A DNA stretch of 64,000 bases from Yuukianura sp. NJ FZ-2021 (taxonomy: Eukaryota), in contig CM102290.1 of NCBI GenBank assembly GCA_046563655.1, positions 11,408,001 through 11,472,000 on the forward strand, given 5' to 3'. The position numbers and the translations under genes are program-made. Each line of letters begins with the position of its first letter. Position 1 is the first letter of the stretch. A model generated the notes under the pieces. That model was not told the origin of the DNA, did not search any database, and worked only from the letters and a program-made list of their open reading frames with translations. This document shows positions 19,553 through 22,500 of the stretch, one piece after another.

Positions 19553-22500
19553 CTATGATTTCTTAAAAGTCAACTGCCATATCACTATGAGACCAACTAG
19601 AACTGCTCCAACGGAATACCCAAGGGATTGGACACTCCCTTCCAATTCGACATAGCTCAGGAAATATCCAACGACGTAACAGCACCAGCCACCAATGATA
19701 TGAATAAAGTATCCAATCCAACTGACCTCATCTGAGTGACCTCCGAGGTACTTCATGTGCTTGGCCCACGGCAACGCAAATTGGGCCACAATTCTGGTCA
19801 CGGTGTCGGACTCCTTCATCTTCTGAACCAATGGACTTGCCAGTATGTGGTAACCCTATACACAGAAAAAAAATAATTGAATTGTAAAATTTTTTTATAC
19901 TTTTTCTTTTTTCGTTTTAGAAAACGCACCAAGAGTGTCAAGGGGTCGTTCTTGGCCATGCTTTGGCCAAATTCAGCGTCAGCCAGAAACGTATCGGTGT
20001 CCAAGAAGCCTTGCCGGAACAACTCTGTGCAGATGACGGTCGTTTCTGAGAAGACACGTCCGAGTAAACTTCCACAAGTTCCGAAAGTTCCGACGAAACA
20101 TGGACCGGTACATGCGCCCGGTACGGCTCCAAGTGGAAGTCTGCCAAGAACTAGAACACAAACGGCACATCCAGTCGTAGACCCAATGCAAGAACCTACA
20201 AATGGTTTGGCCGCTTTCAGAATTTGTCGTAACTCGGGTAGTTTGGATCCACCAGTAGGAGGAGGATGTGTCGTCGGCTCTTCGTTGATTGGTACGTCCA
20301 ATCGCCTACAAAAAATGAACTCATCGAGGTCAAATTAACTTCCGAGGTCAAAGTACCTAACTTTTGAGGTCAACTTAATCAGCTAATCTTTCTTACGTTG
20401 TCATTGTTGCAGGAGTGGAGCTGTCGTAGTTAGTATTGTATCCATTGTAATACGGAGCCATTGACGTGGGTTGGTAGTACACCATGGAAGTATCCTCTCG
20501 TGGACTGTAGTAACTTCCGCCTTTGCTGTAATGGGAGCTGTAGTATGGATTTACGTTGGAAGCATAACTTGGACTTCGTTTTTGGCGCATGATCACATTC
20601 GATTTGAAGCAGTGGACAGGTTCTCCAATCGATTTTCCATCAGGAGAACACGCAACGCGCAGGACTGTGCTGTCATCAACATGTTTACCGTGACACCGAA
20701 ATGTGAGTCCATAGCCGTACTGATTTGGAATCAGTAGATGTTCCGGTAGAGATGCCGGAACAAAGCGGAACCTGAAATGTAAATTTAAAAAAATATCACT
20801 TTTTTTCCAATTTCGAAAGTTTTTTGGAAAATGACTAACCTGTATTCCATTTGATTGTAGGGATCATGCGTCATGACCTCCATTTCGACTCCAGTGCACT
20901 TCCGCCGTCCCTTGCCTTGTTCAGCTACTTTGAGAAGTTCGTGTCTACTCAGAACAGACGACGTAGCTACTTGGTAGTTCCTGGCTATCGCTTCCCCATG
21001 TTGTCCAGTCGTCACTTCCAGTAGATCCTCCAGTATCCAGTCAGAAGGTTGAAGTAGTGGGCTAGGCGCAGAGTCTTTCTTCTTCGGAAGCGATGAAATT
21101 CCAAAGTACACCCCATGTCGACGGAAGCCTTTGGAGAAGCTGAGGTCACCTGACACGCCCATCCTTATCTGTGACCCCCTCGTGCTGTCAACAGCGACTC
21201 CTGCGCAGTCGTAGGCCAAGACAACAGAAAGAATCGAGGGAGTCGGTCCTGTAAAGGAAGGAAACGTAATTTAGTTTACAAAATTAAAGGATAGGGTATT
21301 ACCCGAGTGTGATTTTAGGTGTTAATTGCTGAAGTTATAGCGTTTACATAAGAGAAGTCTGAATGAGAAATGGTTTAAGGTAAACGTAAATTGCATCAAT
21401 TGTAACCACGCCGTGTAATCTCCGGTACCATTGTTTTAACCATCATGTAGTTACACCAAGTGCTTACAGTCAACTGGATACAAATTTTTCAAAAAATCTA
21501 ATCGAAACTAACCTGACTCAACAATTGCGCTGTGGTTACCCTTACCACCAAATACATACAAGAGTCGCCGTTGTGGTTACAACAAATACAATCTATGTTT
21601 ACGCCAACCGGGAAATGAGTTAAATGTAACCAGGTTAGACAAATGTAAAATAAGTAAACCCAGTTTTGAGTGAGTAATTAAAACGGGTTTTTAAATATTT
21701 AAAATTCTGCGGTCCTTGTTTGCTTTTAGCACATTTCCATTGCCGTGCTGACACTGACATTTAAACTTAAGTGTCAGCAATTCGGCACCAAAAATTCTGA
21801 AATTTTGAAATTGTTGAACTGAAATTCATGAATTTTGAAATTCTTGAAATGAAATTCATGAATTTTGGATTCTATTTCGGTCAATTTTGATACTGAAACG
21901 AATCAAAGTTATTTTTATGCTTTTAGCTAACCTGTGAACGTGTTGAATTCCCTGAGGAGTCTGCGTCGGCGCACGTTGTCCCAGTGACCTGACCCGACGA
22001 ACTGAACTGTATAGAGACCAAGAATGTCCAATTGGTTGTTCCACTCATGTACTGCCTCGTGTGAAAACCATCTAAAGAAGTGCTCTTCCTCAACCAAATG
22101 ACTTTGGAGGTCAGAGGTCAATCCTTTGCTAGACAGCAGCAGTATGCCTTCCTCAACTCCCGGAGAAGTCCAGTTTCTAGGCCGAAATGGAGATCCATTT
22201 GACTGCGTTCGTTTCAAACCAAACCGCGACATCAGAATCGGTTCTCGGAATAGGATATCGTATCGTTTGGATGCCGTTTTTCGGTACAGTTCCAGCAGGG
22301 GTACTTGACTCTCGTCATCCAGGATCGGCTGAAGGGCCTTCGTACCTACTTTGACAATTCGATGCAGCAGAGCAAGTACTCTGCCTTCAAGGGCCATTTG
22401 CATACTGGTCACAGTCACAAATCCAGAAACCGACGAACAGTCACTTTGTCCGACACTTCGGGGAGTAAAAATGTGAATTCGACCTTGACCTCTGTTTAAA

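Follow-up and report, generated by a model that had tools for sequence, protein, structure and literature searches.

Within a 64,000-nucleotide window of contig CM102290.1 from Yuukianura sp. NJ FZ-2021 (GenBank assembly GCA_046563655.1, positions 11,408,001 to 11,472,000; coordinates below count from the first letter of this window), a gene on the minus strand at 19553..22805 encodes a receptor-like protein of 778 amino acids in five exons. We found that a whole copy of a so far undescribed domain, self-contained and made of five helices in about 100 residues, is encoded by exons 4 and 5 of this gene; we call it the ICTEL-GY-PWA module. Here, we describe the gene, the family to which the module belongs, and the possible roles of the module in phages, prokaryotes, and animals.

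Gene model and splicing of the module

The five-exon model was assembled from the genomic sequence by eye and then by script. Its coding sequence runs on the minus strand through 22805..21932, 21248..20840, 20771..20397, 20305..19930, and 19855..19553; its length is divisible by 3, and the frame stays open for 778 codons up to a single terminal stop. The four introns (683, 68, 91, and 74 nt) are all of the GT-AG type. A profile built from eight eukaryotic proteins that combine ANF_receptor with the module (A2) matched the whole product with an E value of 2.9e-67, profile positions 99-690 aligning with amino acids 112-749. All five exons matched this profile in order, with exon 1 in its proper place but weak (E about 1).

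An earlier note on this stretch, made from the letters alone, had read the module as one peptide split by an intron, and this reading was borne out to the base. The minus-strand segments 20037..19930 and 19855..19667 join to the note's string exactly, from the Val codon at 20037-20035 of V-I-C-T-E-L to the last Gly codon at 19669-19667, and each of the two translated pieces (20304..19930 and 19855..19556) holds one half of it. The intron between them (19856..19929) is 74 nt long and of phase 0, with GT at 19929-19928 and AG at 19857-19856, and lies just before the codons of an invariant Gly-Tyr. When homologues were aligned to the window by tblastn, seven of them matched both exons in order with few residues skipped; P0018, for example, placed residues 620-651 on 20034..19939 and 655-717 on 19855..19667 (E 1.8e-16). 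The splice is thus supported by homology. The spliced product also matched positions 2-101 of a family hidden Markov model (HMM) with 121-124 bits and an E value of 9e-40, and the animal copy is intron-bearing, as the note held, and also intact.

In the product, the module occupies amino acids 640-741. Its first part (amino acids 640-678, 19930..20046), delimited by the HMM and by helices 1 and 2 of a structural model described below, carries the invariant Cys645 within the I-C-T-E-L..R-Q-G helix, followed by the A-D..F-G helix up to the donor site of exon 4. The second part, as aligned by the HMM (amino acids 679-741, 19667..19855), comprises the helices with the G-Y, A.P.V..M, P-W-A..M, and G..C..G motifs.

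A conserved domain that closes unrelated proteins

Exon 5 alone was searched against 1.84 billion representative sequences and retrieved 117 proteins at E<=1e-3 (best E 1.6e-18), many more than chance would give, mostly matched at the extreme end of proteins that range from 60 to 2549 residues. Since this search was blind to the first half of the module, it provides an unbiased test of whether the two halves are coupled. Among the 87 matches with at least 45 upstream residues, 85 have the Cys motif at a distance of 32-35 residues ahead of the Gly-Tyr (a loose pattern detected 78, and 7 are variants read by eye), so that the two halves make up a single domain; the two misses were an old, mis-spliced Branchiostoma model and P0072. 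The motif takes the form [IVL]-C-[TS]-E-[LM]..[RK]-Q-G and is present in the window copy.

The family HMM was built from 73 full modules found as database matches. Their consensus reads, in order, V-I-C-T-E-L-x-R-Q-G, A-D-x-x-F-G, G-Y-H-x-W-A-x-P-x-V-x-x-M-x-x-S, F-A-x-P-W-A-x-x-M-A-Y-x-x-G, and G-x-x-x-M-x-x-G-x-P-x-C-x-x-x-G. The Cys and the Tyr were invariant in a 96-row alignment, and the Cys was also invariant in a larger set of 201 modules, while the Glu, Gln-Gly, Asp, Gly-Tyr, Met, and Ser were near-invariant across modules. The window copy has the consensus residue at all 18 columns that are conserved in at least 80% of the 201 modules. In this set, conservation of the motif columns is overstated, since the motif itself served to select 113 of the rows, which are phage and genome loci. 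A disulfide between positions C6 and C96 was considered and dropped, as the second Cys is found in only 84% of members and is Ser in Branchiostoma.

The collected sequences show that the module nearly always closes the protein in phages and prokaryotes. The median tail after it is 15-16 residues across the family; in the window it ends 37 residues before the stop, as in those members that have an added hydrophobic helix. Stand-alone forms (P0017, P0035, P0033, and P0075) consist of little beyond the module. Thus, the module would work alone and not only on a passenger.

Predicted fold

We modeled P0075 (162 amino acids) with AlphaFold2 from the 96-row alignment and obtained a mean predicted local distance difference test score (pLDDT) of 91.7, with values of 96-98 across the module. 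The model has five helices and a sixth, which is the added hydrophobic helix of this protein. Column statistics showed amphipathic periodicity throughout the module; helix 5 has Gly at every seventh residue and Lys/Arg at four positions.

Comparison with known families and structures gave no name for this domain. Pfam had no model over the module in the five window pieces, 21 database matches, and 32 locus proteins scanned, nor in the HMO-2011 and cyanophage proteins described below. NCBIfam gave no match on the window exons at E<=1 and none on the module of 22 family members at E<=0.01, its sole match among these 22 being an unrelated repeat family in one member. None of 16 module proteins matched any PHROG at E<=1e-3 (exon 5 gave a weak phrog_35883 match, E 0.014), and PADLOC had no model over the module. 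A 22-row profile found no match among PDB sequences at E<=1, and Foldseek found nothing in the PDB at E<=0.001 (best E 2.5). A search for exon 5 homologues restricted to longer proteins returned none, and exon 5 gave no usable match in the Atlas. Literature searches by motif strings yielded no relevant paper on the module, and those combining polymorphic toxins with metazoa or amphioxus with phage yielded nothing on it. The module is thus an unnamed domain family with what is, by its model, a new fold.

An alignment-free scan of 48,161 chains placed four IpaH/SspH/SlrP E3 ligases at the top (4puf_B, 3ckd_A, 5kh1_A, and 9h6w_A), with Z scores of 5.9, 5.5, 5.4, and 5.2, root-mean-square deviations of 2.6-3.4 Å over 70-86 residues, and 5-6% identity; the next row had a Z score of 4.3. 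As values below 8 are within the stated noise of the tool for helical models, we treat this match as a lead only.

Module proteins of phages

Viral carriers were collected from IMG/VR by a degenerate DNA pattern for the nine-residue motif. We found 109 loci with the motif, 107 of which carry a complete module at 39-137 bits; in these 107, the protein ends 96-131 residues past the motif, apart from one that is cut at 81 by the end of the locus. Four of the five viral records that were checked are complete genomes of 41-45 kb with terminal repeats and one module copy each. The module was also found by tblastn in two cultured phages, namely in gp49 of Puniceispirillum phage HMO-2011 (762 amino acids, between the portal and coat genes) and in gene 028 of the cyanomyovirus Synechococcus phage SynMITS9220M01, beside fiber genes; P0009 as a query gave no match among cultured phages, and other queries found these two. 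Together with the 117 exon 5 matches, these carriers confirm what the earlier note had proposed, namely that the pattern belongs to a real C-terminal module of uncharacterized phage and bacterial proteins. At the level of structure, BFVD contained six viral models at E<=0.001, and in the Atlas, the clusters nearest to the Branchiostoma module were from Uroviricota, with template modeling (TM) scores of 0.68-0.80.

Scanned with PHROG models, three entire structural regions and 26 loci of four kb showed the module gene in podovirus-like genomes after portal, scaffold, capsid, and tail-tube-like genes. It adjoins a lytic-transglycosylase piece (phrog_873), families annotated as "internal virion protein" or "virion structural protein," endolysins, or tail fibers. 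In three complete genomes with terminal repeats (G001, G003, and G005), it lies within the structural cluster. The phage module proteins probably travel in the virion and engage the envelope of the host upon infection.

A recurrent gene order was seen in seven IMG/VR loci (L002, L003, L008, L018, L019, L022, and L034), in which a protein of about 110 amino acids is encoded just before the module gene and one of about 540-575 amino acids without PHROG match just after it.

Module proteins of prokaryotes

A motif scan of 185,579 species genomes returned 98 loci, and 43 of them carry the module at more than 30 bits. By our own arithmetic, about 100 loci are expected by chance in 596 Gb. Because the 98 loci are close to this expectation, only the 43 HMM-confirmed loci count. 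Their hosts include Saccharibacteria, Parcubacteria, many Alphaproteobacteria (among them isolates of Shinella and Thalassospira), Clostridia, Spirochaetes, Fibrobacteres, and Myxococcota, as well as metagenome-assembled genomes (MAGs) of Methanosarcinales and Nitrososphaerota. Several prokaryotic loci are phage-like by their neighbors or identical to IMG/VR contigs. The contig of a Crocinitomicaceae MAG (L129, PAJI01000033.1) equals the IMG/VR viral contig L062 in length and coordinates, and the open reading frame (ORF) coordinates of a Nitrososphaerota MAG contig (L151) equal those of the viral locus L002. Each of the two MAG contigs is probably a phage contig that was binned into a MAG.

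The N-terminal partners of the module are diverse. RHS, SpvB, TcdB, or PT-HINT domains precede it in 3 of the 21 matches scanned (P0025, P0084, and P0067), and a further protein, P0015, starts at the end motif of an RHS core, as read by eye. Other partners are a type IV pilin-like N_methyl start, LysM (3 of the 32 locus proteins), Cys-rich secreted repeats, and helical repeats. In P0025, P0084, and P0015, the RHS core and the module are separated by a further region. Thus, the module need not be the toxin and may be an accessory part. In P0015, P0082, and P0084, this intervening region resembles a papain-like or PPPDE peptidase, judging from a weak match of P0084 to Peptidase_C97 and from an H...N-N-C-G-D pattern that was noticed by eye in P0015.

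The receptor-like host protein

The product of the window gene begins with a signal peptide and continues with an ANF_receptor-like ectodomain, a beta-rich Cys domain, a Gly/Cys-rich hydrophobic stretch, the module, a hydrophobic helix, and a short basic end. The signal-peptide-like start is hydrophobic (amino acids 1-24, 22734..22805) and forms part of exon 1 (21932..22805), which otherwise encodes a diverged periplasmic-binding/ANF_receptor-like ectodomain matched by the family profile. Exons 2 and 3, with the 68-nt intron between them (20397..21248), encode the end of the ectodomain, the middle domain, and a Tyr/Ser/Asn-rich linker (profile E 1e-4 and 1.4e-6). The Gly/Cys-rich stretch (amino acids 587-619, 20107..20205) shows GxxxGxxxG spacing and a maximal 19-residue Kyte-Doolittle (KD) hydropathy of 1.94 and is a possible first membrane span. 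Downstream of the module, 19553..19666 encodes a short loop, the C-terminal hydrophobic helix (amino acids 751-776, 19562..19639), and the basic end up to the stop. Helix 5 of the window module has no charged residue, and its amino acids 722-740 are hydrophobic (KD 1.52); this last helix of the module, together with amino acids 587-619 and 751-776, makes exactly three hydrophobic segments after the signal peptide.

Pfam recognized nothing on any of the window exons at E<=1, neither PF01094 nor PF13458 included, which suggests that the ectodomain has diverged. The assignment of exon 1 is based on the match of the whole protein to the A2 profile and on its homologues, as ANF_receptor/Peripla_BP_6 was found in all five proteins scanned of the six distinct A2 rows, with ANF_receptor above the Pfam cut-off in each. 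By sequence, the host protein belongs to a small eukaryotic family. A database search with the eight-row eukaryotic profile found five proteins only, and the sole named eukaryotic relative is the Branchiostoma floridae cluster XP_002595121 / XP_035688879.

We also modeled one full-length relative, P0058 (721 amino acids), with AlphaFold2, which predicted a confident binding-protein domain, a beta-rich middle domain, and a confident module. Its middle domain (amino acids 403-521) consists of beta strands with a block-mean pLDDT of about 75-93 from residue 421. In the window, the corresponding region (20397-21248, minus strand) has conserved Cys residues and a conserved Y-G-Y/F motif and matches no Pfam family; it looks like a second undescribed domain. 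In all eukaryotic relatives, a 33-residue Gly/Cys/Ala/Thr-rich stretch with repeated GxxxGxxxG precedes the module, and similar small Gly-zipper-like helices are found before the module in some bacterial members, such as P0039 and P0021.

Hydrophobic and basic ends

We described the ends of the family from 167 distinct modules, each complete and with its end complete as well. Of these, 114 carry a net positive charge in the last 12 residues. A hydrophobic 17-mer helix is added after the module in 28 and absent in 139; the 28 include the window protein, the other eukaryote-like proteins, and RHS-type and Firmicutes proteins. Helix 5 of these 28 is less charged (median 1 versus 2 charged residues; Mann-Whitney p 0.001) and more hydrophobic (KD 1.38 versus 1.08; p 0.004) than in the rest, in a comparison that does not control for relatedness. 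This difference suggests a membrane hairpin of helix 5 and the added helix in cellular versions and a soluble module in phage versions.

Origin of the animal module and its intron

FastTree analysis of the 201 modules placed 11 eukaryote-like rows and the fragment P0085 on one side of a branch with an SH-like support of 91. An IQ-TREE analysis of 86 rows grouped ten eukaryote-like rows with an SH-like approximate likelihood ratio test (SH-aLRT) value of 76; their neighbors were Firmicutes and RHS-type proteins. Copies from prokaryotes and phages greatly outnumber the eukaryote-like ones and are spread over many architectures, and the eukaryote-like copies occur on essentially one.

The position of the module intron is not private to the window. 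In the metagenome relative L216 (43% identical), the Gly-Tyr codons immediately follow an AG acceptor, upstream of which the frame is unrelated. The same boundary is implied at the protein level by P0004, whose reading frame runs into unrelated residues upstream. P0018, found on contigs of up to 2.9 Mb, has one uninterrupted frame; thus, intron content differs within the family.

Because the eukaryote-like copies cluster, because a relative exists in Branchiostoma, and because the intron site is common to L216, we infer a single acquisition that is old and not recent; the trees fit it without proving a single capture or its direction. The module would have been captured once, from a bacterium or a phage, by a eukaryotic receptor gene and then have descended vertically with introns. 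The horizontal origin proposed in the earlier note is therefore plausible, in that prokaryotic and phage copies abound and the eukaryote-like copies cluster, and its direction and date are inferred, the trees being unrooted and weakly supported. The animal module was probably borrowed long ago.

Genomic surroundings

The gene lies among intron-bearing animal genes, and by its sequence, the window is animal DNA. The neighbors were found at 30925-32534 (minus), 24295-26120 (plus), and 52035-59703 (minus). They comprise a transketolase, which was confirmed by homology (one exon being 73-76% identical to named arthropod proteins and 78-84% identical to unnamed transcript-length contigs), and, by eye, a YqeH/NOA1-like GTPase and a filamin-like run of Ig repeats. 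Within the 683-nt intron 1 of the module gene, short direct repeats of a 'ttcaaaattcatgaatttca'-like unit are found at 21800-21890. Just downstream of the gene, at 17443-17730 on the minus strand, the ORF list shows an open frame with a tandem acidic unit of about 23 residues, which reads A-A-P-A-V-P..E-E-D-D-V-E-D-D-T-G-I-Q.

Discussion

The explanation that we favor is that the module is a non-enzymatic, membrane-proximal end domain. Helices 1-4 would form a compact soluble unit, in which the invariant Cys, Glu, Gln-Gly, Asp, and Gly-Tyr make up one binding or assembly site, and helix 5, lined with Gly, would hold the passenger at a membrane with the help of a basic tail or of an added hydrophobic helix. 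In tailed phages, the module would close virion-carried proteins that engage the envelope of the host upon infection. For the animal protein, the three hydrophobic segments fit the following topology: the ectodomain would lie outside, the Gly/Cys-rich stretch would be the first span, helices 1-4 of the module would be cytoplasmic, and helix 5 would form a hairpin with the last helix, leaving the basic end inside after three spans in all. Taken as a whole, with identity, mechanism, and origin together, this explanation falls just short of an even chance in our judgment; the mechanism by itself is tentative and a shade less probable.

The closest parallel in phages is offered by the ejection (internal virion) proteins of podoviruses (T7 gp15 and gp16; P22 gp7, gp16, and gp20). 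These insert themselves into the envelope of the host, and those of the gp16 type retain membrane helices at the C terminus together with a basic end that are needed for infectivity (PMC8954989). The genes of the phage module carriers lie in the same part of the genome, and their products are likewise large, rich in low-complexity or coiled-coil sequence, and basic at the C-terminal end. In contrast, neither sequence nor PHROG comparison relates module proteins to those families (0 of 16 matched any PHROG at E<=1e-3), and the module is a compact amphipathic five-helix domain and not a pair of membrane helices.

Several observations weigh against the membrane-proximal explanation. The mechanism is read from sequence, context, and a predicted fold. 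The Gly/Cys-rich stretch of P0058, which would be the first span, has a pLDDT below 50. No IMG/VR locus is among the 28 modules that a hydrophobic helix follows. In most members, helix 5 is amphipathic and has Lys/Arg at its four positions, and the median KD of the last 22 residues is only 0.6; thus, the module itself is not a membrane span in most proteins, and for the same reasons, we rejected helix 5 as a classical membrane span in all members. The partners come from both sides of the membrane, as LysM, pilin-like starts, Cys-rich secreted repeats, and ANF ectodomains lie outside and weak Trans_reg_C/RuvA_C-like matches in P0021 suggest inside; therefore, no single topology fits all. As for the origin, IQ-TREE puts P0011 outside the eukaryotic group, the core clade reaches an SH-aLRT of only 76, and both trees rest on 104 columns, are unrooted, and are weakly supported. 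Last, the invariant Cys at the start of a helix, together with the invariant Glu, Gln, and Tyr, looks more like chemistry than packing, and this Cys is the main fact that the favored explanation leaves unused.

This Cys is central to an alternative in which the module is a thiol-dependent catalytic or effector domain with the helix-1 Cys as nucleophile, delivered by phages and toxins into target cells and serving as the cytoplasmic output of the animal receptor, where ligand is bound outside. The invariance of the Cys and the near-invariance of the Glu, Gln-Gly, Asp, Gly-Tyr, Met, and Ser speak for this alternative; the module is the last domain of the three RHS/SpvB/TcdB/PT-HINT proteins, which is the usual place of a toxin domain; stand-alone forms exist; and the four best structural matches are all Cys-dependent E3 ligases. 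However, these matches are within noise and have an identity of 5-6%, and the part matched is the first helices of the ligases, whose own Cys would presumably, by the order of the ranges, fall at the opposite end from the invariant Cys of the module. No NEL domain was found by Pfam in any of the proteins scanned, there is no invariant His, and 100 residues are small for an enzyme. Moreover, given the extra region that precedes it in P0025, P0084, and P0015, the module need not be the toxin. We consider this alternative unlikely.

Like the module, the NEL domain of the IpaH/SspH/SlrP ligases, which are type III effectors, is all-helical, and it is Cys-dependent and delivered by bacteria into other cells. 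It is, however, several times longer than the 70-86 residues concerned, and its catalytic motif is CxD. Only its first 70-86 residues were matched, and the module consensus is C-T-E, with no C-x-D. Among RHS/Tc-type toxins, the module ends P0025, P0084, and P0067, and RHS-type and Firmicutes proteins are nearest to the eukaryotic clade in the IQ-TREE subset; an extra region intervenes after the RHS core. Toxin C-terminal domains have reportedly been taken up by animals, the teneurin C terminus being an example that Zhang and colleagues are said to have described in 2012. In passages of a survey of such toxins, Tox-WTIP was the only toxin domain found with membrane helices, and its motifs differ from those of the module (PMC3482391).

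The Cys could instead act on the module's own chain. It would attack the preceding Val/Ile-Cys bond by an N-to-S acyl shift and free the N-terminal passenger, in the manner of the phage tailspike ICA domain that animals reuse in MYRF; this corresponds to the second cleavage site suggested in the earlier note. The invariant Cys is indeed the first conserved polar residue of the domain, is preceded by a conserved Val-Ile, and comes after a flexible linker that is often rich in Gly (in 70 of 218 rows, Gly makes up at least 24% of the 25 residues preceding the module). In addition, the domain stands at the terminus behind passengers of very different kinds, and in animal proteins, a membrane helix adjoins it. 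There is also a precedent for an animal membrane protein with a self-cleaving C-terminal domain known from phages (PMC3742443 and PMC8326128). Against this, stand-alone proteins with leaders of 17-32 residues have nothing worth releasing. The Hint fold is all-beta, and the module is all-helical in the model; acyl-shift domains use a conserved His, Asn, or Thr partner, and no conserved partner of this type was found. Pfam gave no Hint, intein, or Peptidase_S74 match on the module within the scope given above, and the sole matches of this kind lie about 180 residues upstream of it in P0025. We hold self-processing to be rather improbable.

The ICA/Peptidase_S74 domain of phage tailspikes, which is reused in MYRF, remains instructive as a case of domestication. 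It uses a Ser-Lys dyad, whereas the residue of the module is a Cys, and Pfam S74 does not match the module. In both cases, a phage-derived domain stands by a membrane helix in an animal protein and has a nucleophile-type residue at its start (PMC3742443 and PMC8326128). The window carrier, however, is a protein with an ANF_receptor-type ectodomain and not a transcription factor.

The earlier note had likened the module to CFI-box-CTERM domains. This would make it a short C-terminal signal for sorting or lipidation, with the Cys as the attachment site. CFI-box-CTERM is a short tripartite tail made of a motif, one hydrophobic helix, and a basic cluster, and the module shares with it the C-terminal position, the leading invariant Cys motif after a linker, and, in some members, the hydrophobic helix and basic end. 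The likeness did not withstand comparison. NCBIfam gave no match on the window exons (E<=1) or on the module of 22 family members (E<=0.01), the Cys is followed by about 95 folded residues, in five confident helices, before the module ends, and a hydrophobic helix follows in only 28 of the 167 modules, so that what is found is a folded 100-residue domain and not a short tail. The module also occurs in phages and eukaryotes, neither of which is known to have the dedicated sorting enzymes that such signals would need. This makes a sorting signal very improbable. The least credible alternative, to which we give hardly any weight, is that the locus is bacterial or phage contamination of the assembly or a dead relic misread by splicing: exon 1 indeed lacks a Pfam match, but four GT-AG introns yield one open frame, the five exons match the eukaryotic family profile in order, animal genes with introns such as the transketolase flank the gene, all 18 highly conserved module columns are kept, and the intron site is common to relatives. 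The remaining probability falls to something other than these readings.

Combining the catalytic and the self-cleaving possibility, the module may be a chemically active Cys domain that tailed phages and bacterial toxins use on target cells and that a group of animals and other eukaryotes has wired behind a periplasmic-binding-type ligand sensor. We hold this to be improbable. If true, it would create a class of receptors unknown so far, with a thiol reaction of phage origin or a self-cleavage under ligand control as the output, and it would be a second, independent domestication of the MYRF kind.

There are earlier examples of animal membrane proteins that have adopted a phage or toxin domain; the domain family itself is undescribed. 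With a confident predicted fold, an invariant Cys, and hundreds of members, it has no name in Pfam, NCBIfam, PHROGs, PADLOC, or the sequences of the PDB. It links genes from the structural clusters of abundant marine phages, both of the HMO-2011 type and with complete uncultivated podovirus-like genomes, to RHS/Tc-type toxins of bacteria and to a family of receptor-like animal membrane proteins with a member in amphioxus. Few phage or bacterial conflict domains are listed as reused by animals, and the module adds to them a clean example that bears introns. If its function were found, this would annotate at once a recurrent gene of marine podoviruses, an accessory part of polymorphic toxins, and an orphan family of animal receptors.

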